Origin: Chiloscyllium plagiosum
Lineage: Eukaryota
NCBI RefSeq assembly: GCF_004010195.1
Contig: NC_057756.1
Span: 7,755,676-7,819,675, forward strand
DNA: 64,000 nt
Direction: 5' to 3'
Shown: one piece after another, positions 16,574-62,046 of the stretch
Position numbering within the stretch: the stretch's first letter is position 1
How the letters are laid out: the number at the start of each line of letters is the position of its first letter
The notes under the pieces: model-generated
Seen by the model: only the letters and a program-made list of their open reading frames with translations
What the model was told of the DNA's origin: nothing
Database searches by the model: none
Translations under genes and position numbers: made by a program

Positions 16574-16580
16574 ACCAACC

Positions 16581-32773: not shown

Positions 32774-32882
32774 GTAAGTATGGACATCTACCATTCTACA
32801 TTATGCGGAGTATTCTACGTTGTGCCTGGCAAGGTCTGACAGTGGAAATATAACTGTGCAATCAAGTACTCTCCAGCAATGC

Positions 32883-38406: not shown

Positions 38407-39388
38407 NNNNNNNNNNNNNNNNNNNNNNNNNNNNNNNNNNNNNNNNNNNNNNNNNNNNNNNNNNNNNNNNNNNNNNNNNNNNNNNNNNNNNNNNNNNNNN
38501 NNNNNNNNNNNNNNNNNNNNNNNNNNNNNNGCCTGATTGCCTCTGGATGGATCCTGGGGTCAATCCTAGGAGCTGTTTCATGGTGCTATAAAATCAGTAG
38601 TCAGTAGACATTTTGGGAGCCAGTGGGTGAAGGCATGTATTGTAAGTAAACATCATTAAATGCTTAACGTTATAGAATTATAGAGCTGGACACCATGGAA
38701 ACAGACCCTCCGGTCCAACTCATCCATGCTGACCGGAAATCCTAAACTTATATAATCTAATTTGCCAGCATTTGGCTCAGATCACTCTAAACCCTTCCTA
38801 TTCACATACCCAATCCAGCTGTTTTTAAACGTTGTAATTGTACCAGGCTCCACCTGTTCCTCTGGCTGCTCATTCCATACACGAACCACCCTCTGTGTGG
38901 AAAACGTTGCTCACTATATGCCTTTGTAATATTTCCCCTCACACCTTAAACCTATGCATTCTAGTTTTGGACTCCCCTACCCGGGGAAAAGATCATATTT
39001 ACCCGAACCATGCCCCTCATGGTCTTATACACCTCTATAAGGTCACCCCTTAGACTCCAACATTCCAACAAAAATACTCCATAGTGTATTCAGCTTCTCA
39101 CTTGATAGCTCAAACCCTTGAACCCTGGCAACATCCTTGTAAATCTTTTCTGAACCCATTCCTGTTTCAGACCAGCCCAGCTAGAGTAGGGAGTCCAGAA
39201 TTAAATGCAGTATTCCAGAAGTGGCCTAACCACTGTCCTGTACAACCGCAACATGACCTCTCAACTCGTATAATCAGTGCACTGACCGACAAAGGCATAC
39301 ATACCAAAACCCTTCCTCACTATCCAGTGCTAATGGAGTCTTGCTGTGCTTTCCATTTGCTCACAATATTCTCTTCCTTTCTTCTTAG

Positions 39389-39670
39389 ACTCACCACGGA
39401 ATCTCTCAATTACATCTCTTGCTGTGATTAAAGATTCATCGATCAGTGTAATTGAGGGGAATTCTGCAGTGATAATCTGCTCTGTTGTGAGCTTCCCAGC
39501 TTCTAACCTGATGTGGAGACATCTTAACATCACAATGAACAGAACAAGCTCCAACAATGACTTATGGTTGCAAATTCCTCACATTACGTACAGGGAGACT
39601 GGAGACTATCAGTGTGTGGCAGAGAATAAATATGGAGCAGTGGATGGCTCCATTACCATTGCTGTGGAAT
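39389..39670 (+). CDS. Siglec-like gene: 282-bp repeated Ig exon R1 (intact)
   Basis: SPRNLSITSLAVIKDSSISVIEGNSAVIICSV...W...GDYQCVAEN; TAG acceptor, GTAAGT donor, phase 1-1. Confidence 0.88.
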
Positions 39671-40311
39671 GTAAGTGAATGTGTATATGTTTCAACATCA
39701 CTCACTGATACACACACAGAAGGTCACATGCACTCAGACACACACTGCCTCACGCACTAGGAAACAGACACCAGCACAATACTGCCCGAGTGATTGGCAG
39801 ATACCTCCCACTTTACACATTCACTGCCTCAACCATCATCACCCAGTTGCAGCACTATCTATAACAATCTGCACTCCAGAAATTCACCAAGACTTCATTG
39901 ATAGCATCTTCCATACCCATATTGGTGGGCAAGGGCAGCAGCTACATGGAAACACTACAACTCGCAAGTTCCCCTGCAAGCAACCTATAGCGTGACTTGG
40001 AAATATATCACCATTTCGACAGCATAACAAGGTCAACTGCTATTTTCGAGACTGCAATGGTTCAATAAGGCACCATCTCTTTCTCAAGGCAATTACCGAT
40101 AGGCAACAAATGCTAGCTGACCCAAAACCACCTACAATCTTTGAATTAATAAAAGGAAACAAACAGGAATTGTTTATTTGAAATGTTGACATCAGAATTT
40201 CACAGGGGAAAGACAACTTGAAATGCACATGGTGATCAGATACAGAGGGATGAAATATTTAGCATCCATGTGCTCTGTTTTCATTCACATGAATTCCTTA
40301 TTTAGAGTTAG

Positions 40312-40593
40312 ACACACCACCAAATCTCTCAATTAGTTCTCTTGCGAAGATTAAAGATTCATCAATCAATATAATTGAGGTGAATTCTGCAATGATAATC
40401 TGCTCTGTCGAGAGGCTCCCAGCTTCTAACCTGGCAGGGAGATATTTTAATGTAAAAATGATCAGAACAAGTTCCAACAATGAGCTGTAGTTGAATATTC
40501 CTCATATTACGTACAGGGAGATTGAAGACTATGAGTGTGTGGCAGAGAATGGTCAGGGAACTGTGGAGGGCTCCATAACCATCACTGTGCAAT
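40312..40593 (+). pseudogene. Repeated Ig exon R2, pseudo-exon
   Basis: In-frame TAG at 40488-40490 (TGG in most sister copies), eroded polypyrimidine tract, most divergent copy. Confidence 0.85.
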
Positions 40594-41976
40594 GTGAGTG
40601 TACACAGGCATTGAAATGGCTTGCAGACACACACATGAACAGATATGTATATCCTACAGACACCCAGTTGTGACATATCCTCTCAGTGTTACACTGGAGC
40701 ATCAGTATAAGATTGAATTCTCTGTGGAAGGAATAGAAACTCTAGATTAACAAGATGCTCAATGATCCAACGGCCTCGTGCACCCAGAATTGTAGATTTC
40801 TTTGTTTTGAAATCAGTTTTGATGTTGATTTCATATGGATTGGTGAAGCAGCAACTGATTAAAATTGTAACATTGAGGGAAAAAGAATTTCAGTGGTGAC
40901 TATATTCAATCCTGCCGAGAGGTAAGGGTGAGGTTTATTGCAACGTTTCTCAGATCTCACTCAGATCAATTCAAGAATCAGATGTTAGTTTAGGTTTTAA
41001 TGAGTTAAACAGTTAGTAGGAGGGCAGAGGGAGAGAGAGCGAGAGAAAGAGAAAGACAGAGAGACAGAGAGAGCGAGAGAGAGAGAGAGAGAGAGAGAGG
41101 CAGAAGCTAGGTCCCTGCAGGTTAGAGTACGTGAGCTGTACTCCAAGCAAATGTTATGAATGAAACTGGCTGGATGGAGCTTAGAATCAAGTCCCACAAA
41201 GTACTCTACAGCTCCAATGCAGTCAGGAATCTCGAGAAGTCATTTGTGCCAATAAGTGAGATTACATCATGCAGTTAGAATCCAGGAAGAATTTACTAAG
41301 CATCATTAATATTTCAGAAAGTGAAAACTTGGAACCGCTTGAACACATTTATTGAGATCTGGTAATCCCAGGGACACTAATGTCTGGTGATGTTCCTGAA
41401 AAGTCCATAGAATCGATCTTCACTTCATTTAGTGTTTAATGAGCTCTGTAGCATGATCAGTCACAGTTTCTCTGATGTGATATTTTCCTCATGTTAACTT
41501 TGGAAATTACTGGATATGATTTAGATAGTACTAATGTTCTAATTTTGAATCATAACATTTCCTTTCATTTGTTTAAAATATGGACTTTTATGATTTTATG
41601 CTCTTTGTAATGACATGGCAACACAAACATTGCCTCTGTTCAAGAAAGCACTTGACAGATGATAACTTGGCAATCTGGCTTGGCATGATAACATATCCTT
41701 CAATATTAAATTGATCATATCCAATTCACTGCTGCCAAGGCTTTGGGAATATTGTGAGGATGAGAGAGGCATTTTCTTCCTTTCAGGATGGAGAGTGTCC
41801 TCATTTGTGGGATGAGAAACCGACAGTGTGACAGTTTACATGGGCAGTGTCCTTCATACAGCAACTACCACTCAGAGAAGGCGATGGGGGGGTGCACATC
41901 TGAGTGTCAGAGAGATGGTTATGGAGTCTTGCTGGGCACTCTGTTTGCTAACAGTACTCTCTTCTCTTGTTTTCAG

Positions 41977-42258
41977 ACTCACCACGGAATTTCTCAATTA
42001 CATCTCTTGCTGTGATTAAAGACTCATCAATCAGCGTAATTGAGGGGAATTCTGCAGTGATAATCTGCTCTGTTGAGAGCTTCCCAGCTTCTAACCTGAC
42101 GTGGAGACATCTTAATGTCACAATGAACAGAACAAGTACCAGCAATGAGCTGTGGTTGGAGATTCCTCACATTACATACAGGGAGACTGGAGACTATCAG
42201 TGCGTGGCAGAGAATGAACATGGATCAGTGGAGGGCTCCATAACCATCACTGTGGAAT
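41977..42258 (+). CDS. Repeated Ig exon R3 (intact)
   Basis: 282 bp open, CAG / GTGAGT splice sites. Confidence 0.88.
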
Positions 42259-42344
42259 GTGAGTGTATACAGACTTCAACATCTCTCTCACATACACACA
42301 CACAAACACACAGGTTCAGACCTGTAGACACACACATGTGACAT

Positions 42345-42478
42345 GAGAGATTTAAACAATCCTTAGATAAGCACATGGATGATTTTGGGATAGTGTAGGG
42401 GGACCAGCTGAGAATAGTTCACAGGTTGGCGCAACATTGAGGGCCGAAGGGCCTGTTCCGCGCTGTATTGTTCTCTGT
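42345..42478 (+). mobile_element. Very short CR1 3' end, same family as 27425-28566
   Basis: Matches 28428-28565; absent from the paralogous positions near 46047 and 47866. Confidence 0.8.
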
Positions 42479-43214
42479 CCCTTCTCTCAGTGTTGCACTG
42501 GAGCATCAGTATAAGCTTCAATTCTCTGCTAAAGGAAGGGAAACCCTAGATGAAGAAGTGCTGCCTCGAACCCACGATCCCCTGCACACATAATTATTGA
42601 CTGCGCACATAATCACTTTTGCTGTTGGCTCCATTTGTACAATGTATAAACCAGTAACTGGTGAACATTGTAACATTCAGGGTAACAGAATTACAAAGGC
42701 TGCTACATTGAATGCTGCCTAAAAATACGCAAGGTAAACATTTTAAGGTTTTGAAACCGACAGAACTGCGGAAGCTGTAATTCAGAAACAGAAACAGAAA
42801 TTGCTGGAAAAGCCCTTCCTCAGAACTGTCACCAGATTTGAAACATTAACTCTGATTTCTGTTTACAGATGCTGCCAGACCTGCTGAGCTTTCCCACCAA
42901 TTTTTGTTCTTGGTGCAATGTTTTGCATTAGTTGAACAGTCAAAGGCAATTCACGTTGGAGGCATTTATATAGTTAATAGTGGGGGGGGAGGGTGTGAGA
43001 GATAGAGAGACACAGACATGTAGTTTTCCCTTCGGGAAGTGTTCTATCATCTGTGCTACTAAGGGGGTTCCCACAGGGGCCTGATTGCCTCGGGATAGAG
43101 CCTGTGCTCAATCCTAGGAGCTGTTTTATGGTGCCATACAATCAGTAGTCAGTAGACATTTTAGGAGCCATTTGGTGAAGCCAAGTATTACAAGTAAACC
43201 TTATTAAATGCATA

Positions 43215-44165
43215 TTGTCATAGAATCATAAAGCTGTCCAGAAACAGACCCTTCAGTCTAACTCATCCATGCTGACCAGAAATCCTAAATTAACATAGTT
43301 CCATTTGCCAGCATTTGGCTCAGATCACTCTAAACCCTTCCTATTCACACACCCATCCAGCTGCCTTTTAAATGTTGTAAATATACCAGCCTCCGCCAGT
43401 TCTCCGAGCTGCTCATTCCATGCATGTACCACGCTGTGTGTGGAAAAAGTTGCCCATTAAGTGCCTTTATAATCTTTCCCCCTCACCTTAAACCTATGCA
43501 ATCTAGTTTAGAACTCCCCTACCCCGGGGAAAAGACCTTGTATATTTACATCCAGGCCCCTCATGATCTTATAAACCTCTATAAGGTCACTCGTTAGACC
43601 CCACATTCCAGGGAAAACAGCCCCAGCTTATTCACCCTCTCCCTGTAGCTCAAACCCTTGAACCCTGGCAACATCCTTGTAACTCTTTTCTGAACCTACT
43701 CCTGTTTCACAACATCCCACCTAGAGCACGGAGACCAGAATTGAACGCAGCATTCCAGAACTAGCCTAATCACTGTCCTGTACAGACGCAACATGACCTC
43801 CCAACTTCTGTACTCAATGCACTACCAATAAAGGCAAGCAGACCAAAATCCTTCTTCACTATTCAGTCTAGTTGCTTTTCCACTTGCAAGGCACTATGAA
43901 CCTGCACTGCCCAGGACTTTACCCGTAAGCATATAAATCCTGTCCTGATGTGCCTTTCCAAAATGATGCAGCTCACATTTATCTAAATTACACTCCATCT
44001 GCCACTCCTCGGCCCATCTGCTCAAAGTCCTGTCGTACACTGAGGCAACCTTCTTTGCTGTCCACCATGCCTTCAATTTTGGTGTCATTAGCAAACCTGC
44101 AAACTGTACATCCTGTGTTCACATCCAAATAATTTGTATAAATGACAAAAAGCAATGGACACAGC
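43215..44165 (-). mobile_element. CR1 3' fragment carried within the duplicated exon unit
   Basis: RWAEEWQMECNLDKCE; paralogous copies at about 38670-39325, 46795-47138 and 48835-49870. Confidence 0.85.
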
Positions 44166-44858
44166 AAAACAAACTCTAACCCATTTCTGATTGTTTACTA
44201 ATTCAAATGGTGATAAATTGGTGTTTCTTGTAAATTAGATTTGAATGACATTTTATGATCCAGAGAGTCATTAATGTCTGGGACGGTTGTTGAGAAATAT
44301 TTGGGATCTATCTTTACTTCATTAAACATTTCTGTGGGGTGATCAATCCATCATAGTCTCGCTGTTAATTTTGAAATTTTGAATTTAATTTGGAAATTGT
44401 TGATTGCATTACTGTTAAAACTTTGTACAGTTACACTTTTCATTTACTAACACCACGGAAAGTTGTGACTTTATTCTCTTTGTAAGTCTGTGGCATCTCA
44501 AATGTTGTCTCCGTCAAAGAAAACATCCTGGTCCCCCATCAGATGGTAACCTGGGGATCTGGTCTGTGGTCATAACACATCCCTCAATATTCCATTGACC
44601 AGATTCAATTCATTGCTCCCAAGGCTTTGGGAATATTGTAAGGATGTGAAAGGCAGTTTCTTTCAGATGGTCAGTACTCTCATTGGTAGGAGGAAGAAGC
44701 AACAGTGTGGCAGTTTACATCAGCAATTTCTACTGGAAATGTAACACAGCAACTTCCACTCAGAGACAGTAATGCCGGATCCACATATCACAGACCGACA
44801 AGTGGTTATGGATACTTGCTGTCCATTTGCTCAGAATATTCTCTTCATTGCTTCTTAG

Positions 44859-45140
44859 ACTCACCATGGAATCTCTCAATTACTTCTCTTGCTGTAATTA
44901 AAGATTCATCGATCAGTGTAATTGAGGGGAATTCTGCAGTGATAATCTGCTCTGTCGAGAGCTCCCCAGCTTCTAACCTGATGTGGAGACATCTTAATGT
45001 CACAATGAACAGAACAAGTTCCAACACTGAGCTGCGGTTGGAGATTCCTCACATTACGTACAGGGCGACTGGAGACTATCAGTGTGCGGCAGAGAATGAA
45101 CATGGAGCAGTGGACGGCTCCATAACCATCACAGTGTAAT
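44859..45140 (+). pseudogene. Repeated Ig exon R4 with stop in its last full codon
   Basis: Open for the whole domain, then TAA at 45137-45139 (GAA/CAA in sisters); donor changed to GTTAGT. Confidence 0.7.
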
Positions 45141-45676
45141 GTTAGTGTACACAGACTTCAACATCGTCTCACATACACACACAAATACATGGGTACAGAC
45201 TTTCACAGACACACAGAGGGTAGTTCGTGTATGGAAGGAGTAGCCAGAGGAACAGGTGGAGCCTGGTACAATTACAACATTTAAAAGACAGCTGGATGGG
45301 TATGTGAATAGGAAGGGTTTAGAGTGATCTGAGCCAAATGCTGGCAAATGGGACTATATATGTTTAGGATTTTGGGTCAGCGTGGAGACTTGGACCGGAG
45401 GGTCTGTTTCCACGGTTTCCAGCTCTATAATTCTATAACGTTAAGCTTTTAATGATGTTTACTTACAATACTTGGCTTCACCCACTGGTTCCTAGAATTA
45501 TTCCAGAAGTGGCCTAACCACTGTCCTGTACAGCCGTAACATGACCTCCCAACTCGTATACTCAGTGCGCTGACTGACAAAGGCATACATACCAAAACCC
45601 TTCTTCACTATCCAGTGCTAATGGAGTCTTGCTGTGCTTTCCATTTGCTCACAATATTCTCCTCCTTTTTTCTTAG

Positions 45677-45958
45677 ACCCACCACGGAATCTCTCAATTA
45701 CTTCTCTTGCTGTGATTAAAGATTCATCGATCAGTGTAATTGAGGGGAATTCTGCAGTGATAATCTGCTCTGTTGTGAGCTTCCCAGCTTCTAACCTGAT
45801 GTGGAAACATCTTAATGTCACAATGAACAGAACAGGTTCCAACAATGAGCTGTGGTTGGAGATTCCTCACATTACGTACAGGGCGACTGGAGACTATCAG
45901 TGTGTGGCAGAGAATGAACATGGAGCAGTGGAGGGCTCCATAACCATCACAGTGGAAT
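45677..45958 (+). CDS. Repeated Ig exon R5 (intact)
   Basis: 282 bp open, TAG / GTGAGT. Confidence 0.88.
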
Positions 45959-45979
45959 GTGAGTGTACAGACTTCAACA

Positions 45980-46014
<35 letters not shown>

Positions 46015-47638
46015 TACACGTACAGACCTGCAGATACACACGTGACATGTCCCTTCTCTCAGTGTTGCACTGGGGCATCAGTATGATCTTCAGTTGTCTG
46101 TTAAAGGAAGGGAAACTCTTGATGAACCAGATGCTGCCTTGAACCCACAGTCCCCTGCACAGATCATTGTTGATTTTGTTGTGGAGAAATCATTTATGTT
46201 GTTGGATGCATTTGTACTGTGTAAGCCAGCAACTGGTGAATATTGAAAAATTCAGGGAAACAGAATTTCAATGGCTGCTGCATTGCATAATGCCTCAAAA
46301 TAAACATTGCAAAACTTTTAAAACTGACAGAACTGCGGATACTATAAATCAGAAACAGAAACATGAAATTGCTGGAAAAGCTCTTCCTCAGAACTATCAC
46401 CAGACCTGAAACGTTAATTCTGATTCTGTTTACAGATGTTGCCAGACCTGCTGAGCTTTCCCACCAATTTTTGTTCTTGTTGCAAGGTTTTACATCAGTT
46501 CGACACTCAAAAGTAATTCAAGTTGGAGGTACTTAGATAGTTAGGAGCAGGAGGAGACTGTCAGCGAGAGAGAGAGAGACACACACAGACAAACATGTAG
46601 TTATCCTTTCAGGAAGTGTTCTATCATCTGTGCTGCTAAGTAGGTTCCCATAGGGGCCTGATTGCCTCTGGATGGATCCTGGGGTCAATCCTAGGAGCTG
46701 TTTTATGGTGCTATACAATCAGTAGTCAGTAGACATTCTGGGAGCCAGAGGGTGAAGCCAAGTATTGCAAGTAAACATCATTAAATGCTTAATGTCATAG
46801 AATCATAGAGCTGGACACCATGGAAACAGACCCTCCGGTCCAACTCATCCATGCTAACCGGAAATCCTAAACTTATATAATCTAATTTGCCAGCATTTGG
46901 CTCAGATCACTCTAAACCCTTCCTATTCACATACCCATCCAGCTGTCTTTTAAACGTTGTAATTGTACCAGGCTCCACCTGTTCCTCTGGCTGCTCATTC
47001 CATACACGTACCACCCTCTGTGTGGAAAACGTTGCTCACTATATGCCTTTGTAATCTTTCCCCTCACACCTTAAACCTATGCATTCTAGTTTTGGACTCC
47101 CCTACCCCGGGGAAAAGATCATATTTACCCGAACCATGNNNNNNNNNNNNNNNNNNNNNNNNNNNNNNNNNNNNNNNNNNNNNNNNNNNNNNNNNNNNNN
47201 NNNNNNNNNNNNNNNNNNNNNNNNNNNNNNNNNNNNNNNNNNNNNNNNNNNNNNNNNNNNNNNNNNNNNNNNNNNNNNNNNNNNNNNNNNNNNNNNNNNN
47301 NNNNNNNNNNNNNNNNNNNNNNNNNNNNNNNNNNNNNNNNNNNNNNNNNNNNNNNNNNNNNNNNNNNNNNNNNNNNNNNNNNNNNNNNNNNNNNNNNNNN
47401 NNNNNNNNNNNNNNNNNNNNNNNNNNNNNNNNNNNNNNNNNNNNNNNNNNNNNNNNNNNNNNNNNNNNNNNNNNNNNNNNNNNNNNNNNNNNNNNNNNNN
47501 NNNNNNNNNNNNNNNNNNNNNNNNNNNNNNNNNNNNNNNNNNNNNNNNNNNNNNNNNNNNNNNNNNNNNNNNNNNNNNNNNNNNNNNNNNNNNNNNNNNN
47601 NNNNNNNNNNNNNNNNNNNNNNNNNNNNNNNNNNNNNN

Positions 47639-47783
47639 AATGTCACAGTGAACCGAACACGTTCCAACAATCAGCTGTTGTTGGAGATTCCTCACATTAC
47701 GTACAGGGCGACTGGAGACTATCAGTGTGTGGCAGAGAATGAACATGGAGCAGTGCAGGGCTCCATAACCATCACTGTGGAAT
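47639..47783 (+). CDS. Repeated Ig exon R6, 3' half (5' half in gap)
   Basis: NVTVNRTRSNNQLLLEIPHITYRATGDYQCVAENEHGAVQGSITITVE, GTGAGT donor. Confidence 0.75.
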
Positions 47784-48128
47784 GTGAGTGTACAGACTTC
47801 AACATCTCTCTCACATACACACACACAAACACATGGATACAGACCTGCAGACTCACACATGTGACATGTCCCTTCTCTCAGTGTTGCACTGGAGCATCAG
47901 CATGAGCTTCAGTTGTCTGTTAAAGGAAGGGAAACTCTGGAGTAAACAGCTACTGCTTTGAACCAACAATCCATTGCACAGATAATTGCAGATTTTGCTG
48001 TGATGAAACCATTTTCCTTTTTGCACCCATTTGTACTTTGAAAGCCAGCAACGAGTGAACATTTTAACACTCAGGGAAAAAGAATTTTAATCATTGCTAC
48101 ATCGAATGCTGCCTAGAACTAATCAAGG

Positions 48129-48346
48129 AGAAAGTGAGGACTACAGATGCTGGAGATCAGAATCGAGAGGGTGGTGTTGGAAAAGCACAGCAAGTCAGGC
48201 AGCATCTGAAGAGCAGGAGAATCGACGTTTTGGGCATAAACCTTTCATCACGAATTCCTAATGAAAGGCTTATGCCTGAAACATTGATTCTTCTGCTCCT
48301 CAGATGCTGCCAGACCTGCTGTGCTTTTCCAGCACCACCCTCTTGA
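48129..48346. mobile_element. Short fold-back Penelope-derived element with two back-to-back decayed hammerheads
   Basis: Palindrome centred on GAATTC (about 48252-48257); TSD CTAGAACTAATCAAGG / CTAGAAATAAGTAAGG; empty site in the paralogous unit near 42719. Confidence 0.85.
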
Positions 48347-50594
48347 CTAGAAATAAGTAAGGTACACATTGCAAGGTTTTAAAAATTGAAGGAATTGCGG
48401 ATGCTGTAAATCAGGAACAAAACCAGAAATTGCTGGAGAAGCCTTTCCTCAGAATTGTGACTGGACCTGAAACATTACCTCTGATTTCTCTTCGCAGATG
48501 TTGCCAGACTTGCTGAGCTTTCCCAGCAACTTCTGTTTTTGTTACAAGGGTTTACATCAGTTCAGCAGTCAAAGGCAATTTAAGTTTGAGGCATTTAGAT
48601 AGTTAGTGGGGGGGTGGCGGGGAGGAGGTGGGAGAGAGAGAGAGAGAGAGCGCAGGAAGTGTTCTATCATTTGTGTGCACAGAGCATTTCTATAGTGGCC
48701 TGATTGTCTCTGGTTGGAGCCTGGGATCAATTCTAGGATCTGTGTTATAGCACCATACAATCAGGAGTCAGGATGCATTCTAGGAACCAGTAGGTAAGCC
48801 AAGTGTTATAGGTAACTCATTAAATGCTGTGAGTCATAGTATCATAGAGCTATGCAGTACAGAAACAGACCCTCCTGTCTAACTAGTCAATGCCGACCAG
48901 ATATCCTGAAATCATATTTTCCCATTTGCCCACATTTGGCCAGATCCCTCTAAACCCTTTCTATTCATATACCCACCCAGATGCATTTTAAATGTTGTCA
49001 TTGTACCAACTCGACCACTTTCTCTGGCAGCCCATTCCATAAAGACAACACCCTCTGCATGAAAAAGTTGCCCCTTTGGTTCCTTTTAAATCTTTGCCCT
49101 TTCGCTTTAAAGCTACGGTCTCTAGTTTTTGACTTCGTCACCCTAGGAAAAAGACCTCGTCTGTTTACACTATCCATGCCCCCCATGATCATACAAACCT
49201 CGATGAAGTCACCCCTCAGCCTCCGACGCTCCAGGGAACACAACCCCAGCCTATTCAACCTCTCCCTGTAGCTCAAACTCTCCAACCCTGCCAACATCCT
49301 TGTAGATCTTTTCTGACCCCTTTTAAGGTTCACAACATCCTTCCTATAGCAGGGAGACCAGAATTGAATGCAATATTTTAAATGTGGCTGAACCAATGTC
49401 TTGAATATTCGCATCATGACCTCCCAGCTCCCTTACTCACTGTACTGAGCAATAAAGGCAACCTTGCCAAAAGCCTTCTTCACTATCCTGTCTGCCTGAG
49501 GTCCCATTTTCAAGGAACTACAAACCTGCACCCAAGGTCTCTGTTCAGCAACACTCCGAGGACCTTATCATTAAGTGTATAGGTCCTGCCGTGATTTGCC
49601 TTTCCAAAATGCCACATCTCACATTTATCTAAATTAAACTCCATCTGCCTCTCCTCAGCCCATTGGACCATCTGATCAAGGTCCCATTGCACTCTGAGGT
49701 AACCTTCTTCAGTGTCCACTACACCTTCAATTTTGGTGTCATCAGGATACTTACTAACCATACTTCCTATGTTCACATCCGAATCATTTGCATAAATGAC
49801 AAAATGCAATGGACCCAGCAACGATCCTGGTCACAGGCCTCCAGTCCGAAAAGCAACCCTCCACTGCTCCCCTTTAGGGATATGAGGGCAAGGGTCTGGC
49901 TCAGAACACATCTATGATTAATTACAAATTCAAATGGTGAGGAATTGCTATCCCTTGTAAATGAGATCTCATTGACATTTCATGGTCCACAGGATCATTA
50001 ATATCTGGGAGTGTTGTTGAGAAATATTCGGAATCTATCTTCTTCTCATTTGGCATTTGATGAGTTCTGTGGGGTGATCGATTACAGCCTCACTGTTAAA
50101 TTTGAAAATTAGAATATAAATTGTACATTGGTGACTGTATTACCATTCTAACTTTGGATAGTTACACTTTCCATTTATTAATATGGAATGCTGTGACTTT
50201 ACTCTCTTTCTAAGTCCATGACATCTCAAACTTTATCTCCATTAAAGAAAGCATCCTGGTCCCTCAACAGATGGCAACCTGGTGATCTGGCTTGAGATCA
50301 TAATATATCTCTCAATATTCTATTGATCAAATTCAATTCATTGCTCCCAAGCCTTTGAGAATGTTATGAGGATCTGAAAGGCCATTTCTTTCATTCAGAT
50401 GGACAGTACCATCATTGGTGAGAGGAAGAACTTACAGTGTGGCTATTTATATCGGCAGTGAACATCAAAAATGTAATACAACAAGTTTCACTCTGAGAAG
50501 GTTATGGGAATCCACACATCAGAGTCAGAGAGATGGTTATGGAGTCTTGCTGTACACTCTGCTTACTCACAATATATTCTTCCTTTCTTCTTAG

Positions 50595-50876
50595 ACTCAC
50601 CACAGAATCTCTCAATGACTTCTGTTGCTGTGATTAAAGATTCATCGGTCAATATAATTGAGGGGAATTCTGCAGTGATAATCTGCTCTGTTGTGAGCTT
50701 CCCAGCTTCTAACCTGATGTGGAGACATCTTAACATCACAACGAACAGAACCAGTTCCAACAATGAGCTGTGGTTGGAGATTCCTCACATTACGTACAGG
50801 GAGACTGGAGACTATCAGTGTGTGGCAGAGAATAAACATGGAGCAGTGGAGGGCTCCATAACCATTATTGTGGAAT
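50595..50876 (+). CDS. Repeated Ig exon R7 (intact)
   Basis: 282 bp open, TAG / GTGAGT. Confidence 0.88.
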
Positions 50877-51685
50877 GTGAGTGTACAGACATCAACATCT
50901 CTCTCACATACACACACAAACAAATGGGTACAGCCCTGCAGACACACATTAGACATATCTCTTCCCTCAGTTGTACTGGAGTATCAGTATGAGTTTCAAT
51001 TCTCTGTTGATTTACAAGATACTGCCTTGAGCCAGCAATTCCCTGCACTGAGAATTGCAGATTTCTTTGTGGTGAAGTTATTTCTGCTGTTGGACTGTCT
51101 AATCCAGCAGTCGGTGAATATTGCAATATTCTGGAATAAGAGTTCCACTGCTTGCTACATTGAATGCTGCCGAGAGATAAAGGTGGGGTTTGTTGCAAGG
51201 TCTCATCCAGATCTGTTGCAAGGTCAGCCGCCATTTTGGTTTTAATCGCTCAGACAGTTGGAGGGAGAGTGAGCCAGAAGCTGGCTCCATGGAGGATTAT
51301 TGCTGTTAGCTGTACTGCTCTGAGAAAGCAACCAGGCCATTGTGAAGGCCACTCAATTGGCTTCTGCCAGCAGAATGCTACCCCTGCACCGCTCTGCACT
51401 CTGCAGTACTTTAGAATCTACTGTCAGGATTTCAAGCTCTCCTTGGACAATTTGGCCCATTAACTTTTTCTTTCTCCACAAATGCTGCTTGGCCTGCTGA
51501 GAATGTCAAGGTCTTTCAGTTTTCATTTGAGATTTTGAACTATTTTCCCAACACTGGGCAGTGAATACCTGGATTGTTTTTAGTTAGGTAGGAAATGGCC
51601 TGAATCCAATGTAGATAAATGGGGATGAGACAGAGATTGCAGTGATCTGACTAAGTGGTGAAATAGGCTCAGATGGCTTATGGTG

Positions 51686-52582: not shown

Positions 52583-52961
52583 AACACCTCAGGATGTGGA
52601 CGTAACTGGCAGATGTTAAGTTTAGTGCACGTGGGTAGTTTTCTCAATAGGTTACTTCCTTCTGCACTGTAGTCTTTGTAGTGAAAGTGCCAAACTGTTT
52701 GATTCATGCTTTTTTAAATACAACTTAACAGAGCTCTGCAGAGTACAGTTCAGTGGATGAGAGACCAACACATAGGCCAGAACAGATAGGTTTTGCATGC
52801 TCTGTTAATTAATAGAAATTAGGGATTAGCTTGGTTTTTAAAACAATAGAAATTACGTGACACTCCCTAATCTATTTGTTTTATTATTTTCAATTTCATT
52901 AACTGAATTTGAACTTTAAACTCTATCATGGGAGGTTTGAATGAAATTCTATGGATTGTTA

Positions 52962-53520
52962 CAAAAACAGAAATGGCTGGAAAGATTCCGCAGGTCTGGC
53001 AGCATCTGTGGAGAGAAATCTGAGTTAACGTTTCGGATTCAGTGACCCTTCCTAGAACTGATGGTAGTGAGGAAAAGGTTGTTTATATGCAGAAGATAGG
53101 GTGTTGGGAGGATGGTAAAGTGTAAACGATAGGTGGAGATAGAGGCCAAAGACAGAGAGAAGAACAGTTGGACAAACAAGGGAGTTGATGATAAGATGAG
53201 GAAAATGGATAGTTACTAATGGGGACAATTAATGGTTAACCATGGGTTGTGTATAACAGCAGACCATGTGATAACAAGGCCTGGTGTGAGGGGAAGGGGG
53301 TCAGGACATGGGAGAAGAAGTCCCAAGTCCTTTCTTGTTGAACTCAATATTGAGTCCAGAAGGCTGGGATGTTCTCAAGTGGAAAATGAGGTGCTGTTGT
53401 TCTAGGTTGTGCTGAGCTTTCACCAGAGCACTACAGCAAGTCCAAGACAGAGATGCTGACCAGGGAACACAATGATAGAAGTGTTAGACAACCAGAAGCT
53501 CAGGGTTTCCGTCAGCATAA
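52962..53520 (-). mobile_element. Penelope-like element 3' fragment, family of 19485-20345
   Basis: Colinear similarity including the terminus and a hammerhead remnant at about 53023-53058. Confidence 0.75.
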
Positions 53521-53929
53521 ACTGGGTTTCCCCAGCTTTCTGTTGAAGGCAGTTAAAAACGTGCAGAGAGCTGACAATAGCAATATTGGAGTTACAGCAG
53601 TGAATAATAAGACTGGCACGATATGTTCCAAATACAAAATGATACAATTTAATGCTGTGGACTGCCACATGGATGATTAACTGGTCATTTGGAGTTTTAT
53701 TATGCAAAATACATTTTATTTGAGTTGTTTCACCTCATTATTAACCTGCCCATTGAGTACTATTTGAGCAATAGGTGCATGTGTCTGCAACCTTAAAAAT
53801 CTTCAGCCAATCTTCTCCAGCATTGTTCAGTATGGCATCAAAATTATGTTTGTAACTTTTATCATGGTCTCATTTTAAAGCTGGCTGCAAAGATCAGCAA
53901 GTGTGTAAGGAGTGGAGGTATAATCAGGG

Positions 53930-54812
53930 TTGAAAAGGGAGTGTTGACAGATGTTGTTTTTGTGGACTTCCAGAAGGTGTGTGATAAGGTTTTCCACAAG
54001 AGCAAAGACGAAGGAACACAGAATTCCGGTGTAACATTGAGGCCTTGTAGAGTTAATGGTAGGGCTCTGGGTAGCGTTGTCAGAGAGACCTCGGGATTCA
54101 GGTACATAGTTCTTTGAAAGTGGTTTCATAGGTGGACAGAGTGGTTAAGAAGGTGTTTAGCATACTTGTATTCATTGCTCAGACCATTGAGTGTAGGAGT
54201 TGGGACATTATGTTGAGATTGTAGAGGACATTGGTGAGGCCACTTTTGAAGTACTTTGTTCAGTTCAGGTCACCCTTTTACAGGAAAGATATTATTAAAT
54301 TGGAGACAGTACAGAAAAGAATAACCAGGAAGTTACTGGGACGAGAGGTTTGAGTTAGAAGGAGAGGATAAGCTGGGACTTTTCTCACATGAGCGTAGGA
54401 GGTTAAGAGGTGACCTTACAGAGGTTTATAAGATCATGAGGGGCATAGTTAAGGTGAATAGTAAAGGTTTTTTTCCCTCATGTGGGGAGGCGGGGGTGGG
54501 GGGGAGGGCGGTTTGGCTGGTTCAAAAGTAGAGGCCATATTTTTAAGGTGAGAGGGAAAGATTTAAGAGGCACCTGACGGGCAACCTTTCTACACAGAGG
54601 GTGGTGTGTATCTGGAATAAACTGCCGGAAGAGGTGGCGGATGCCGGTACAGTAACAGCATTTAAAAGACATTTGGATGGGTGCAAAAATCGGAAAGGTT
54701 CAGAGGGATATGGACCAAATGCAGGCAAGTGAGACCAGCTGAGTTTGTTAAACTTGGTTGGTATGGATGAGTTGGGTTGAAGGGTCTGTTTCTGTGCCGT
54801 ATGACACTATGA
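53930..54812 (+). mobile_element. CR1 LINE 3' fragment
   Basis: DFQKVCDKV-like start, LVRPLLKYFVQF-like coding, RRLRGDL, CR1 tail. Confidence 0.8.
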
Positions 54813-55267
54813 CCCCCTATAACTGAAGGGCCTTGACTTGATCTGGTTGGAGCTTTGGATGACATCCTAGGAACTGTTTTATAGCTCAGTAAAGTTTAGA
54901 ATCAGGTTATGTTCTGGGAGGCGGGAGGTGAGGCTACATTTTAAAGTTTGAACTCAGGAGAAAAGGTTTTTAACTTTGTGAGGCAAGGCGCTGAGAAGAG
55001 GGCTGTTTTTCATCAATAACTGAGAAAATAAGGATCTGGAAACCCTTGCAAAGTTTTACTCGGGGAATGAAGAAGGGATAAGAAAATTTGACAAGAGGTA
55101 TAGGCTGGTGTGTGGGAACCCCCTGTAATGATAATCCACAGCATCACTAATGTTTGGGAGTGTTGGTGAGAAATCTGTTGGATCTATCTTCGCCCCATTT
55201 ATTATTTGATGAGCTCTGTGGGGTGATCAATCACAGTCTCTGTTATCCACATTTACCTCATATTCAT

Positions 55268-55792
55268 TTTTTTAAATTCATTTGTGGGAAGGAGGCATCA
55301 CTGGCTGTCCCAGCATTCATTGCATGTCGCTGGTTGCCCTAGACAAGGTGGGGGTGAGCTGCCCTTCTTGAACCACTGCAGGCCAGCTGTTGTGGGTTGA
55401 TCCATAATGCCCTCAGGTAGGGAATTCCAGGATTATTACCAAGCGACTGAGAAAGGCAACCTATTTCCAAGTCAGGATGGTGAATGGCTTGGAGGGGAAT
55501 TTGAAGATGGTGATGTTCCCATGTATCTGCTACCCTTGTCCTTCTGGACGGAATGGTTGTGGGTTTGGAAGGTGCTGACTGAGGATCTTTAGTGAATTTC
55601 TGCAGTAAATCTTGTAGAACACACACACTGAACATTGGTGGTGGAGGGAATGGATGCTTGTGGATGTAGTGCTAATCAAATGGACTGCTTTGTCCTGGAT
55701 GATGTTGAGTTTCTTGAATGTTCTTGGAGCTGCACACATCCAGGCAAGTGGAGGGTATCGTATCTCACTCCTGACTTGTGATTGCAGACTTT
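55268..55792 (-). mobile_element. LINE 3' fragment, family of 13018-14000
   Basis: QVRSEIRYPPLAWMCAAPRTFKKLNIIQDKAVHLI. Confidence 0.8.
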
Positions 55793-56002
55793 TGGAAATT
55801 AAAATAGAAGGTGTATGTATATTGCCCATTGTATTACTGTTCTAAACTTGGATTGTAAAATCATTTGCAGAAATCTAAAGAATTTTATGTGTATTTCTTT
55901 ATAGGAACCTGCGGTCTCAAACTTTGTTTCCTATAAAAAAGAAACATCTTGGTCCCCTACCAGATGGTAACCTGGTGATCTGATCTGGGATCATAACATA
56001 TA

Positions 56003-59000
56003 AAATCTCTTTGGATTCTCCTTAACCCTATTTGCCAAAGTTACCTCTTGTCCCCTTTTTGCCCTCCTGATTCCCTCTTACGTACACTTCTACTGCCTTT
56101 ATACTCTTCTAAGGATTCACACAATCCCTGCTGTCTACGCCTGACATACGCTTCCTTCTTTTTCATAACCATCACTTCAATTTCTCTCATCATCCAGTAT
56201 TCCCCACACCTACCAGCCTTGTCTTTCACCCTAACCGGAACATACTGTCTCTGCATTCTCATTATCTCATTTTTGAAGGCTTCCTATTTTCCAGCCATCT
56301 CATTACCTCTGAACATCCACCCCCAATCAACTTTCAAAAGTTCTTACCTAATATCGTCAAAATTGGCCTGCTTCCAATTTAGAACTTTCACTTTTAGATC
56401 TGGTCTATCCCTTTCTATCACTATTTTAAAACTAATAGAATTATGGTCGCTGACCCCAAAGTACTCCCCAACTGAGACTTCTTTCCCAAGAGTAGGTCAA
56501 ATTTTGCACCTTTTCTAGGAGGGACATAAAATATACTGAATCTAAATCTTTTCTGATACACACTGAACAAATTCCTCTCCATCTAACCCCTTAACAGTAT
56601 GGCACTCCTGACCTATGTTTGGAAAGTTAAAATCCCTACCATTAAAAATTTGTTTCTCAATTTCCCACTGACTATTGGAGGGTCTATAATACAATCCCAA
56701 TAAGGTGATTATCCCTTTCTTGATTCTCACTTCCACCCAAATAACTTCCCTGGACGTATTCCCAGGAATATCCTCTCTAAGTACAGCCATAATGTTCTCC
56801 CTTATCAAAAACACCACTCCCCTCCTCTCTCAAACCCCTGTAACATTTCTATTCTGGAACATTAAGTTGCCAGTCCTGTCCATCCCTGAGCCACATCTCT
56901 ATAATTGCTATGATATCCCATGTTCCTAACCATGCCCTGAGTTCATCTGCCTTCCCTGTTAGGCCTCTTGCATTGAAATAAATGCAGTTTAATTCATCAG
57001 TCCTACCGTGTTCTCTGCTGTGTTCCTGCCCACCCTCCCTGTTTTGATTCACTCATTTTCCCAATGGTACCAGTCTCAGATTGATCTCTTTCCTCACTAT
57101 CTCTCTGGGATCCCCCCCCCACTCCGCCATCTTAATAGTTTAAACGAAACACACTTCCTGCAGACAGAATCATTAGTAACATGGAAATTCTCCCTAAACT
57201 CCCAGTTCCGACAGGAAGAGCACATCGCTCTACTAAAGGGCATCTTTGCACCTTCACAACCTCCAGACCCAGAAAATAGCACAGTCTTACTGCTTGAAAA
57301 AACACTGCTTCAGGCTAACTTAGTACTAAGTTATATGTTTTTAAATTTTAATCAAGAGACAGATCTCAATAAAGCATATAACCAAAAATAACCCACTCTC
57401 CTCACTATTGCAGATTTACAAAAAAAAAGCAGCAAAGTTATACTTAAAAACCATGCACTTATTTGCTGCCGTAAAGTGCTGTTGTTTTGATTTCTTTTTT
57501 ACCCAAAGTTCCAAAGCAATGCAACAGTTTATAAAACAATAATTACTGCTCCTGGAATTTGAGGAAATGAGCTCCAACACCTAAAATGCCTCAAAACTAT
57601 TTTGGTGCCACTATTTCAGAAAGGTGATAAGGAAAAGCCAGGGAACTATAGACCACTGAGCCTGACAACGGTGGTGGGGAAGTTGTTGGAGGCAATCCTG
57701 AGGGACAGAATCGACATGTTTTTGGATATGCAAGGACTGTTTAGGGATAGTCAACATGGCTTTCTGCATGGGAAATCATGTCTCACTATGTTGATTGAGT
57801 TTATTGAAGATGTAACGAAGAGGATTGATTAGGGCAGAGCAGTGGATATATATGGACTTCAGTAAGGCATTCGAAAAGGTTCCCCATGGTAGACTGGATA
57901 GATCACATGGAATACGGGGGAGAACTAGCAATTTGATACAGAACTGGCTCAAAATTAAAATGATGTGCAGGTGCCGATGTTGGACTGGGGTAGTCAAAGT
58001 TAAAGACCACACAACATTAGGTTGTCGTCCAACCGGTTTATTTGAAAGTACAAGCTTTCGGAGTGCTACCTGATGAAGGAGCAGCGCTCTGAAGGATTGC
58101 ACTTCCAAATAAACCTGTTGGAGTATAACCCGGTGTTGTGTGATTTTTAACTTCAAAGGTAGCTAGTGGTGGAGGGTTGTTTTTCAGACTGGAGGCCTGT
58201 GACCAGTGGAGTGCCACAAGGATCAGTGCTGGGTCCATGCTTTCCGTCATTTACATAAATGATTTGGATAGGCGGTATAATTAATAAGTTTGCAGCTGAC
58301 ACCAGAATTGGAGGTGCAGTGGACAGCGAAGAAGGTTACCTCAGAGTACAACAGAATCTTAACCAGATGGGCCAATGGGCTGAGGACTGGCAAATGGAGT
58401 TTAATTTAGAAAAATGTGAGGTGCTGTATTCTGGAAAAGCAAATCAGAGCAGGACATATACACCTAATGGTAAGGTCCTGGGGAGTGTTGCTGAACAGAG
58501 AGACCTTGGAGTGCAGGTTCATTGTACTTTGAAAGTGGCGTCACAGGTAGACAGGATAGTGAAGAAGGTGTCTGGTATGCTTTCTTTTATTAGTCAGAGC
58601 ATTGAGTATAGGAGTTGGGAGGTCATATTGTGTGTGTACAGGACACTGATTTGGCCACTTTTGGAATCTTGTGTACAATTCTGGTCACTCTCCTATAGGA
58701 AGGATGTTGTAAATCCTGAAATGTTTCAGCAAAGATATACAAGGACGTTGCCAGGGTTGGAGAGTTTCAGCGATAGGGAGAGGCTGAATAGGCTGGGGCT
58801 GTTTTCCCTGGAGCATCAGTGGCTCAGGGGTGACTTTATAGAGGTTATAAAATCATGAGGGGCATGTATAGGATAAATACATAAGGTATTTTCCCTGGGA
58901 TGGGGGAGTCCATAAGTAGAAGGCATAGGTTTAGGGTGTGAGGGGAAAGCTTTCAAAGGGACCTAAGTGGCAACCTTTTTACTCAAAGAGTGGTGGGTGT

Positions 59001-59187
59001 ATAGAATGATCTGCTAGAGGAAGCGGTGGACGTTGGTACAATTCAACATTTAAAAGGCATCTGGATGGGTATGTGAATAGGAAGGGTTTTGAGGGACATG
59101 GACCAAGTGCTGGCAATTGGGCCTAGATTAAGTTCGGATATCTGGTCAGCATGGATGTGTTCCATGCTGCATAGCTCTATGACTCTG
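56003..59187. mobile_element. CR1 LINE with inverted 5' portion (5' UTR, ORF1 zinc finger and endonuclease on -, RT and tail on +)
   Basis: - strand CSSCRNWE...CRKC and LNCIYFNARGLTGKADELRAW; + strand VPLFQKGDKEKPGNYRPLSLT to TCTATGACTCT tail; host sequence CATAACATA|TATCCCTCAATATTCC rejoins across it. Confidence 0.85.
57953..58152. mobile_element. Short fold-back element, third hammerhead-bearing family, nested in CR1
   Basis: Inverted arms; CTGATGAAGGAGCAGCGCTCTGAAG; flanks TCAAA/TCAAA; relative at about 59793-59955. Confidence 0.7.
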
Positions 59188-59466
59188 TATCCCTCAATAT
59201 TCCATTGATCAAATTGAATTCATTGTTGCAAAGGCTTTGAGAATATTGTAAGAATGTGATAGGCATTGTGCTTCTTTCAGGATGGAGAGCGCCCTCATTG
59301 GTGGGAGGAGGAAGAACGTACAGTATAAAAGTTTACATTGGTAGTGTCCATCAACAATGTAATACAGCAACTTAGATATAAGGATCCATACGTCAGATTC
59401 AGACAGAGATATGGAGTCTTGCAGTGCACTGTGTTTGCTCACAATATTCTCTTCCTTTCTGTCTAG

Positions 59467-59748
59467 ATGCACCACGGAATCTCTCAATTACTTCTCTTGC
59501 TGTGATTAAAAATTCATCGATCAGTGTAATTGAGGGGAATTCTGCAGTGATAATCTGTTCTGTCGAGAGCTTCCCAGCTTCTAACCTGACATGGAGACAT
59601 CTTAATGTCACAGTGAATAGAACATGTTCCAACAATGAGCTGTGGTTGGAGATTCCTCGAGTTACATTCAGAGAGACTCGAGACTATCAGTGTGTGGCGG
59701 AGAATGGACACGGAGCAGTGGAGGGCTCCATAACCGTCACTGTGCAAT
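59467..59748 (+). CDS. Repeated Ig exon R8 (intact)
   Basis: 282 bp open, TAG / GTGAGT. Confidence 0.88.
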
Positions 59749-60927
59749 GTGAGTGTACACAGATTTCAACACACACACACACCTCTACAGACATGATGTG
59801 GAGGTGCCAGTGATGGGCAAAGTCTGAAGCCACATGACACCAGGTTATAGTCCAACAGGTTTATTTTTTTAATCCCCAGCTTTCGGAGCACTGCTCCTTT
59901 GTCAGGTGAGTAAATTTGACTACACCTGATGACCTGGTGTCATATGACTTTTGACACACACAGATAAGACCTGTGGCATCCCTCAGTGTTGCACTGGATC
60001 AGTATGAGCTTAATTCTCAGCTGAAGGAATGGAAATTCTACATTTACAAGATGCTGTCTTGAACCAGTAACTCTTGCGCATTTTGCTGTGCTGAAATTAT
60101 TTTCAGTGTTGGATCCATTTGCACTATGTAAGCCAGCAAGTGATGAACATTGTAACATTCAGGGAACAAGCTTTCCAATGGTTGCATGTTCATTCCTACC
60201 TGGACATAAGGGTGCGATTTGTTGCAACGGTTCCAGTAAATCTCTCAGATGAGGTCAAGAATCAAAAGCTGTTTTGAGCTTGTGTCAATTGGACAGTTAT
60301 TGGTGGGGGCTGAGGGGGGAGGACTTGTTGGTGGTGGGGAGCACCAGACACCACCAGAGAGAGAGAGAGAGAGAGAGACAAACGCATTTGAACATCTGTT
60401 TATGAAGAGTGCTGCTTGCTGTACTGCTCTGATAAAGGCCTGATTCTGTCTGGCTGGAGATCGGGATGAAGTCCCAGGAGCTGTTTTATTGTTCAGTTCG
60501 GAATCCGGAGACCACCTCTGATCCAATAGCTGATGCTAAGTGTTACCGTTTGAACTAACAGGAATAGGTCTTAAATTTGTGTGAGATCAGAGGCTCAGAA
60601 GATCTTCATTAATAATCCAGCAAGTGAGGAGTTGCAATCCCTTTTAAAGTTTTAATGAGATTTGATGATATACAGAGTCACTAATGTCAAGATATGTCAC
60701 TGAGAAATCTGTGGAATCTATCTATTTAGTATTTGAATAGCTCTGTGGGCTGATTGATCACACTTTCTCTGTTATCTATATTTATCTGATGTTAATTTTG
60801 GAAATTCGTAAGATAGGACAAAGGAGCAAGAGTAGGCCATTTGGCCCATCAAACTTGTTCTTCTGTTCAATAAGATAATGGCTGATCAATGAACAAACTT
60901 CATCAACCTGCCTTTGGCCCAGCTCTA

Positions 60928-61229
60928 TGGGCGGCATGGTGGCACAGTGGTTAGCACTGCTGGCTCACAGCACCAGAGACCCGGGTTCAATTCCCACCTC
61001 AGGCGACTGTCTGTGTGGAGTTTACACGTTCTCCCCGTGTCTGCGTGGGTTTCCTCCGGGTGCTCCGGTTTCCTCCCACAGTTCAAAAATATGCAGGTTA
61101 GGTGGGTTGGCCATGCTAAATTGCCCGTAGTGTTAGGTGAAGGGGTAAATGTAGGGGGGGTCGGTTGTGCGTTGGTGTGGGCTTGTTGGGCCAAAGGGCC
61201 TGTTTCCACACTGTAAGTAATCTAATTTA
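60928..61229 (+). mobile_element. HE1/V-SINE
   Basis: Head, core and tail as 52261. Confidence 0.92.
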
Positions 61230-61764
61230 ATACCTTTGCTGAACAAAAGTTTATCTGTCTCAGAATTAAAGTTATCAATTGATCAAGCATCCACTGCCAT
61301 TTACAGAACAGAGTTCCAAGTTTGGAATCTAAGTTGGATATATATTATATATTTCATTACTGTTCTAACTTTGGATAGTAACTTTTCGTTTGTGACTTTA
61401 TTCGCTTTGTTAGTCTGTGACATTTCAAACTCCGTTTCTTTTCAAAGAAAGCTTCCTGATGCCTCACCAGATAAGAACTGGTGATCTGGTCTGGGATCAT
61501 AACATATTCCGTTGATCAAATCCAATTCATTGCTGCCAAGGCTTTGAGAATATTGTGAGGATGGACAAGGCATTTTGTTTCTTTCAGAATGGAGAGCGCC
61601 CCCTCATTGGTGACAGCTTACACAGACAGTGTCCATCAGAAATGTAATAAAGCAACTCCCACTCAGAGATGGTTACAGGTGATCCACGTATGAGAATCAG
61701 AGAGATGGTTATAGAGTCTTGCTGTGCACTGTTTGCTCACGAGATTCTCTTCCTTTGTTTTTAG

Positions 61765-62046
61765 ACCCACCACGGAATCTCACAATAACTTCTCTTACTG
61801 TGATTAAAGATTCATCAATCAATATAATTGAGGGGAATTCTGCAATGATAATCTGCTCTGTCGAGAGTTTCCCAGCTTCTAACCTGACGTGGAGACATCT
61901 TAATGTCGCAATGAACAGAACAAGTTCCAACAATGAGCTGCGGTTGGAGATTCCTTACGTTACATCCAAGGAGACTGGAGACTATCAGTGTGTGGCAGAG
62001 AATGACCATGGAGCAGTGGAGGGCTCCATCACCATCATTGTGCAAT
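61765..62046 (+). CDS. Repeated Ig exon R9 (intact)
   Basis: 282 bp open, TAG / GTGAGA. Confidence 0.88.

Follow-up and report, generated by a model that had tools for sequence, protein, structure and literature searches.

The annotated 'Siglec-10' locus of Chiloscyllium plagiosum

We analysed a stretch of 64,000 nucleotides from the shark Chiloscyllium plagiosum (RefSeq assembly GCF_004010195.1, contig NC_057756.1, forward-strand positions 7,755,676 to 7,819,675; hereafter the window), in which a single 282-bp exon encoding an immunoglobulin (Ig) domain is present as nine tandem copies, R1 to R9. The locus is an annotated RefSeq gene, 'Siglec-10': five exons, namely R3, R7, R8, R9 and a further Ig exon termed X, match the RefSeq protein XP_043539166 with 100% identity. 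An original prediction, made from the letters of the window, had placed at least nine copies here, and blastn and tblastn searches of the window recovered each of them at its predicted position (E 1e-147 to 1e-56). With one copy as the query, these searches detected no tenth copy in the 64 kb, the next match having an E-value of 0.05. Eight copies are complete, and all eight are, as predicted, 282 bp long and in phase 1-1; they are bounded by AG and GT, contain no indels, and have pairwise nucleotide identities of 81.9-95.4% (calculated with the frame displaced by one base). Because the exons are symmetrical, every copy number stays in frame. All four of the repeat copies that were scanned passed the Pfam Ig_3 and I-set cut-offs.

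Six of the complete copies are open, and both cysteines are kept in all six: R1 (39389..39670; this and all other exons described here are on the forward strand), which is closest to the first repeat of the Chiloscyllium punctatum and Hemiscyllium models; R3 (41977..42258), which is 100% identical to one repeat of the RefSeq model P0115; R5 (45677..45958), with whose 3' half the RefSeq model P0116 begins; and R7 (50595..50876), R8 (59467..59748) and R9 (61765..62046). R6 is represented by its 3' half (47639..47783), which is 100% identical to the start of RefSeq model P0121, the 5' half lying inside a gap of 500 N (47139-47638). Six complete open copies and R6 thus give at most seven usable repeats. 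R2 (40312..40593) is a decayed copy, with an in-frame TAG at codon 59, a lost C-strand tryptophan and a weak acceptor, its polypyrimidine tract being the weakest of all (0.55 vs 0.73-0.86 in the other copies). By a counting method, its mean non-synonymous divergence (dN 0.170) is about double that among the intact copies (dN 0.085, synonymous divergence dS 0.165). R4 (44859..45140) is 95% identical to R5 and has TAA as its last codon. Intact copies carry three to five N-glycosylation sequons, a slightly wider range than the three to four originally counted (R8 has five); R3 begins with NFS, and R2 retains one sequon.

Between copies, the introns show blocks of homology, at 64-83% identity. The R3-R4 and R6-R7 introns are collinear across 2548 bp (76%), and the introns immediately upstream of the copies are 76-82% identical, with three to eight gaps per pair in about 220 bp; a younger set consists of the stretches upstream of R1, R5 and R6, which are 92-97% alike. 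The duplicated intronic unit that had been proposed for each copy is therefore real, but it does not extend to R2, for which comparison with the other copies revealed no homologous upstream intron.

Some copies could conceivably be haplotype duplicates set in tandem around gaps. The sequence has three gaps; the contig 38531-47138 has the same 482 bp at both ends (96.7% identical), such that the arrangement and count of copies near the gaps may be wrong; and the stops of R2 and R4 are covered by none of the contigs listed from public runs. However, the closest two complete exons are 95.4% alike, a larger difference than the ~0.5% by which another DNA run departs from the window. For the region 38531-51300 we compared 4 of 24 listed public runs. 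DNA run X1 yields contigs ~99.5% identical to the window, at a depth of 2.6-6. They link the end of R1 with the beginning of R2, enter R3 and R7, and stop 10 bp short of R4; in DNA run X3, one contig runs into R5. Every read joint in the DNA runs fell between interspersed repeats, and summed contig depths were not usable as copy number. Furthermore, the introns differ by 17-36%, and the orthologues have 6 and 10 copies, the latter in a C. punctatum model on a 76.7-Mb record. We therefore reject an artefact of the whole array, since the exons diverge beyond the level of alleles and several unique junctions are found in other DNA runs, and we agree with the original prediction that the copies are not haplotype or assembly duplicates; misassembly of a subset of copies is extremely improbable.

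Upstream of the array, a signal-peptide exon (22084..22123) extends from its ATG to a phase-1 GT donor, with 13 of 13 residues shared with the N terminus of the C. punctatum orthologue P0118. A V-set exon, V1 (28745..29110), encodes an F-strand arginine and three cysteines, scores above the Pfam cut-offs for V-set and Ig_CD22, and is 88-90% identical to the V domains of the orthologue models P0117 and P0118; it is the V exon that these models use. The C2-set exon (32480..32773; Pfam C2-set_2), encoding Siglec domain 2, is 90-93% identical to P0117 and P0118, so that V1 and C2 together span 88-93% identity to both orthologue models. A satellite with a 32-33 bp unit occupies 5.5 kb of the intron between C2 and R1 (32882..38406, no strand assigned), with N gaps at 34527-35009 and 38407-38530. 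In the models from C. punctatum (10 repeats) and Hemiscyllium ocellatum (6), the order is signal, V1, C2, repeats, X, Y, transmembrane segment and tail, and from these models we infer that C2 is spliced to R1 across the satellite and two gaps. Exon X (63477..63752) is 100% identical to P0115 and encodes an Ig domain like domain 4 of MAG, aligning to PDB entry 5lf5. A domain 5 (d5)-like exon (Y), the transmembrane segment and the tail lie downstream of the window and were read from models. The predicted series of a V domain, a C2 domain, up to seven repeats and further domains is thus supported as a Siglec layout, with the C2-R1 join supplied by the orthologues.

A second open V-set exon, V2 (31334..31702), lies between V1 and C2. 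It matches Pfam V-set, keeps the arginine (YFFR), is in phase 1-1 with splice sites, and is 58-62% identical to the V domains of P0117 and P0118. It is absent from the orthologous models, and several paralogue models have the order V-V-C. V2 may be an alternative or tandem ligand-binding head.

Relationship to known Siglecs

The best PDB matches of V1 are Siglec-10 (E 2e-15), MAG and sialoadhesin, and the arginine of its YYFR motif aligns with the arginine of the FFR/YFR/FRF motifs of these three proteins. A passage of PMC8198044 describes this conserved arginine of Siglec V domains as binding the carboxylate of sialic acid. Among related elasmobranch proteins, hereafter the family, 109 of 116 V domains have the arginine and the remaining seven have lysine. 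The substitution by lysine occurs in a carpet-shark subgroup (P0018, P0031, P0040, P0042, P0045, P0047). A hallmark of Siglecs is the cysteine pattern of the V and first C2 domains, which form intra-sheet and inter-domain disulfides; three V1 cysteines and three C2 cysteines align with those of MAG, and the corresponding disulfides are predicted here. The repeat aligns to domain 3 (d3) of MAG and of Siglec-8, X to MAG d4, and Y to MAG d5. Together with the signal exon, a V-set domain at the N terminus, the C2-set-type Ig domains and a transmembrane segment in model P0115, these alignments indicate a type I membrane protein of the Siglec group, built on a five-domain plan like that of MAG (V, C2, d3, d4, d5) in which the third domain has been amplified.

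The own-gene model P0115 has two tyrosine motifs in its tail, VLYANI and TEYAKI, with equivalents in both orthologues, and no charged residue in its transmembrane segment. The motifs fit a loose consensus with I, L or V at the last position; they do not fit the stricter form, with L or V there, that a passage of PMC7226832 quotes. On sequence grounds, the receptor is likely to be inhibitory and to read sialic acid, with a tail resembling immunoreceptor tyrosine-based inhibitory and switch motifs (ITIM/ITSM).

In a tree of V domains with 52 rows, the elasmobranch family is united with a support of 99 and separated from the sialoadhesins of frog and duck and from gecko MAG. It may join CD33-like V domains (support 87 for the joint group, 121 columns), the comparison rows being elephant-shrew and turtle sequences judged CD33-like by resemblance. 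We rejected a sialoadhesin orthologue, since V lies outside the sialoadhesin group, the tail has tyrosine motifs, and the domains are not 17 diverged ones. We also rejected a MAG orthologue, since gecko MAG (P0215) pairs with P0267 and not with the elasmobranch family, and since there are 6-10 copies of d3 rather than five Ig domains in total.

MAG (Siglec-4, PDB 5LF5) is nevertheless the best whole-protein PDB match (E 8.7e-74), with the same order V-C2-d3-d4-d5, and fish MAG carries an ITIM according to a passage of PMC7226832. In contrast to MAG, the shark receptor has d3 multiplied 6-10 times and a distantly related V domain, and belongs to a multigene elasmobranch family. The CD33-related Siglecs (Siglec-5, -7, -8 and -10) share a lineage-specific multigene expansion and may correspond in the tail, with a proximal ITIM-like and a distal TEY motif; the best V match is Siglec-10, and V-C2-R aligns to domains 1-3 of Siglec-8. 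Mammalian CD33-related Siglecs have 2-5 Ig domains, whereas the shark ectodomain is far longer. Duplication, conversion and exon shuffling are given in a passage of PMC8198044 as the means by which CD33-related Siglecs evolve.

Sialoadhesin (Siglec-1, CD169) likewise has a long Ig stalk below a sialic-acid-binding V domain (binding by the shark protein being predicted), and its length allows binding in trans, as a passage of PMC10027830 states. However, in none of five long sialoadhesin-type proteins does internal similarity exceed 57% per 90 residues, as compared with 97-100% in shark and ray arrays. Sialoadhesin has 17 domains and no regulatory tail, whereas the long shark and ray forms have 11-14 domains and the present gene has a putative regulatory tail. 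The proposal that this stalk arose independently of sialoadhesin is borne out by the position of V outside the sialoadhesin group and by the match of the repeat to MAG domain 3.

Age and spread of the repeats in elasmobranchs

For the relative ages of the copies, we rely on a quick tree in which the repeats of the window are combined with those of 19 selected multi-repeat proteins, 130 repeats in all (93 columns; support by the approximate likelihood-ratio test SH-aLRT only). R6 groups with C. punctatum r7 and Hemiscyllium r2/r3 (support 97), R7 with C. punctatum r8 and Hemiscyllium r4 (support 97), R8 with C. punctatum r9 and Hemiscyllium r5 (support 100), and R9 with the last repeat of both (support 85) and, weakly, with Stegostoma and Rhincodon. 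Species-specific groups are formed by C. punctatum r3-r6 (support 89) and Stegostoma r1-r5 (support 96). The combination of membrane-proximal orthologues and species-specific V-proximal groups indicates that growth occurred mostly at the V-proximal end. Judged by this tree, the array is older at its membrane-proximal end and younger, with turnover continuing, at its V-proximal end. A single recent origin of all nine copies is rejected, since R6-R9 have positional orthologues. The original description of the array as recent therefore applies to the V-proximal copies, but not to R6-R9, whose orthologues occur in both C. punctatum and Hemiscyllium, nor does it fit the 64-83% identity of most flanking introns. 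Stalk length had been predicted to vary by exon skipping or between individuals; what is seen is a difference in copy number between close species, which have 6, 9 and 10 copies. The older C. punctatum model, P0120, has a repeat that differs by at least 8 residues from every repeat of the newer model P0118, its other five being exact; this mismatch may point to copy-number variation or to a repeat skipped by the annotation.

At a higher level, repeats group by lineage: rays (support 99), Heptranchias (98), and catsharks with lamniforms (88). Repeats within one Heptranchias gene are 94-100% identical, and Heptranchias paralogues with 1, 2 and 10 repeats have nearly the same V-C2 head (V-C2 branches of at most 0.05). 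Heptranchias perlo (P0003, P0122, P0048, P0084, P0102) has two 10-repeat genes whose repeats are intermixed in the tree. Across 113 family representatives, the models have 1-2 repeats in 88 cases, 3-4 in 12 and 5-10 in 13; models with at least five repeats occur in 13 of 21 named elasmobranch species (cluster members counted), and arrays in four orders reach 8-10 repeats. No chimaera or bony-fish proteins were among the matches of the repeat-based protein searches. The family rows are automatic gene models, some with read-through junk (for example, Stegostoma P0002).

We built family trees from V+C2 (86 rows) and from Y plus the transmembrane segment (53 rows), excluding isoform duplicates and rows without these domains. 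In both, long genes are placed among short paralogues of their own lineage. Grouping the 12 long rows as one clade is rejected (approximately unbiased test, p-AU 5e-67; the group was defined by repeat count after the tree had been seen). Repeat length changes state 6 times on the tree, as compared with 11.0 times in shuffles, and 0 of 500 shuffles were as low. Since the long rows are not one clade and yet the changes are fewer than in shuffles, length appears to be partly inherited and to have changed several times. Similar long stalks of sharks and rays are thus likely, from these trees, to have had several origins; an equal pattern could result if a single old long gene had been homogenised by gene conversion across the family. 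Recurrent lengthening across sharks and rays, the inhibitory-type tail and the two broken copies are all absent from the first reading of this sequence.

The head of the receptor is also variable in some species. Models of Cetorhinus maximus LOC144671591 (P0034, P0126-P0139), with isoforms numbered to at least X24, and P0140-P0145 have 3-8 tandem V domains before one C2; these may reflect either the splicing of variable V exons onto a common constant part or the chaining of models. In Hemitrygon akajei (P0016, P0123-P0125), 4-5 near-identical V-C2 pairs precede 5-6 repeats, such that the head is amplified too.

A putative spacer below the head of a probably inhibitory receptor

In sialoadhesin, constructs with up to 4 Ig domains do not bind red cells and those with 6 domains bind less than full length, with a reach of ~14 nm for 6 domains and ~33 nm for 17, according to passages of PMC10027830. 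Interpolated on this calibration, 11 domains would reach ~23 nm and 14 domains ~28 nm; for the C. plagiosum receptor, we infer an ectodomain of 8-11 Ig domains and ~20-25 nm. The family spans 3 to 14 Ig domains and hence crosses the 4-6 domain threshold of sialoadhesin, which favours a role for the stalk as a spacer. With moderate confidence, by analogy with sialoadhesin, we propose that the stalk unmasks an inhibitory sialic-acid sensor for recognition in trans. Under this model, the third-domain Ig exon would have been multiplied ninefold in tandem, likely via unequal crossing-over; V1-C2 would be spliced to R1, with R2 and R4 skipped and up to seven open copies chained; and the chained repeats would form a stiff N-glycosylated spacer under the sialic-acid-binding V domain. 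The V domain would thereby be raised above the cell's own sugar coat, its site freed from cis sialic acids, and could read sialylated 'self' on other cells, signalling via the ITIM/ITSM-like tail.

An AlphaFold2 model of the Hemiscyllium orthologue (mean confidence score pLDDT 65; most repeats 70-85, one 45-57) has the repeats as beta-sandwiches, with one strand continuous between domains at 4 of 7 junctions around repeats. In a Foldseek search, MAG was the sole listed match with a low root-mean-square deviation (rmsd), 8.6-9.3 A over ~525 columns, all others being at or above 18 A, and the modelled ectodomain resembles extended MAG more closely than it does horseshoe-shaped arrays. We discounted the top E-value ranks (DSCAM, contactin, titin) as generic Ig-array matches with rmsd above 40 A, not kinship.

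Several observations weigh against the spacer proposal. With a predicted template-modelling score (pTM) of 0.34, the structural model is unreliable in its overall shape. The three RefSeq models from C. plagiosum are truncated at the 5' end, without V and C2, and have only 4-5 repeats each. Zero depth was found on interspersed-repeat-free bins of the repeat exons in two single-cell poly(A) runs from one sample, of which only 2% and 6% were read, too little to gauge expression; X23 placed no reads and X22 placed reads in interspersed repeats only. Glycosylation, which had been put forward as a feature of the stalk, is no denser in long paralogues (3.53 sequons per repeat, n=88) than in short ones (3.57, n=123), and we reject a glycan enrichment specific to long stalks. 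In a codon model that allows for transition bias, the six intact copies give an omega (dN/dS) of 0.69, which is not significantly below 1 (2 x delta lnL ~2.2), and 2 of 9 copies are broken. Lastly, among the proteins of one search, 43 were more distant and of Siglec type, and 16 of these have near-identical Ig arrays, suggesting that such arrays may form easily. These 43 were the distant Siglec-V proteins among 130 new rows, an array being defined as tandem stretches at least 70% alike, and the long multi-Ig query favours array-bearing proteins. They include fish CD22-like models (paddlefish, bowfin, catfish, cardinalfish, anchovy, basking shark) in which a Siglec-type V precedes young arrays, built of 83-98 residue units or multiples of these that are up to 100% identical; they differ from the shark receptor in having other V lineages and mostly another repeated domain, and are known from database models alone.

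Neutral birth and death is an alternative: chance would add copies of a symmetric 1-1 exon within a Siglec cluster that recombines and is rich in satellites and in LINEs (long interspersed nuclear elements), the extra copies would be tolerated or skipped, and height would be unselected. The non-significant omega, the broken copies, the 6, 9 and 10 copies of three close species, the 88 of 113 representatives with only 1-2 repeats and the frequency of young arrays among fish CD22-like models all fit this explanation. Against it, R6-R9 are open and in register across two genera, arrays of 8-10 repeats recur in four orders, and the exons are 87-95% alike with no indel as compared with 64-83% for the introns, a difference that gene conversion could also give. 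The six copies without indels or stops and the register of R6-R9 are a better sign of constraint than omega, and we consider a wholly neutral array to be a real possibility but somewhat unlikely. Multiplication of exon-intron units by unequal crossing-over, with a change in protein length, is familiar from LPA kringle IV-2 and the CR1 long homologous repeats; these are non-Ig modules, and length polymorphism is shown in LPA and CR1 and is a prediction for the shark array.

Another explanation is that the copies are alternative cassettes that give a single gene a graded series of heights; R4 might then act as a stop cassette, leading to a form that is secreted or decays. RefSeq isoforms P0115, P0116 and P0121 splice R3, R5 or R6 straight to R7, the C. 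punctatum isoform X4 is without r4-r6, and any exon skip preserves the frame. However, R3 and R6 share the same end bases, such that short reads may be mis-assigned, and the sparsely read poly(A) runs contain no junction reads. The intron after R4 has no AATAAA or ATTAAA, so inclusion of R4 would more likely trigger decay. We regard such a length rheostat as unlikely.

A tall inhibitory receptor could also be pushed from close cell contacts, such that inhibition is lifted locally, by the size-exclusion logic of kinetic-segregation models. This would account for a long ectodomain being coupled to an inhibitory-type tail, and the precedent for reach, sialoadhesin, is described in a passage of PMC7226832 as being without regulatory domains. 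Exclusion is, however, compatible with the reach model, and as the main role of the stalk it seems very unlikely.

The spacer proposal bears on Siglec function more generally, since stalk length decides the cis-masking of a Siglec and the one tall natural example tested, sialoadhesin, is non-signalling and composed of old domains. Here, one Ig module occurs in 1 to 10 copies within one tyrosine-motif receptor family, crossing the 4-6 domain threshold, such that the effect of height on inhibition is testable with natural constructs. Exon amplification is a common mechanism, and the locus carries a RefSeq annotation already. We found no description of elasmobranch Siglec architecture in the open-access literature searched. 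A passage of a paper on teleosts states that fish lack CD33-related inhibitory Siglecs (PMC7226832); our data suggest that cartilaginous fish have a large Siglec family of inhibitory type. We suggest, tentatively and with more doubt than confidence, that elasmobranchs have their own expanded inhibitory Siglec family, in which ligand choice (the V exon) and height (1-10 d3 exons) are separate dials, and in which tall members are recurrent, converging on 11-14 Ig domains, with one head serving short and tall paralogues. On that reading, the shared head would sense self-sialic acid in cis on a short stalk and in trans on a tall one, and splicing or allelic copy number would tune the change between the two; nature would thus have titrated the rainforest model in a receptor of inhibitory type.

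The remainder of the window contains traces of mobile elements and one decayed gene-like segment. A LINE reverse-transcriptase fragment with 351 open codons lies in the intron between the signal exon and V1 (27393-28448). A repeat at 1-511 and 24070-24781, 97-99% identical and partly inverted, is a young mobile-element copy. Broken frames of a rhodopsin-type G-protein-coupled receptor lie at 16067-17177, with a weak 7tm_1 match below the cut-off (E 3e-4), and are split at ~16269-16573 by an interspersed repeat.

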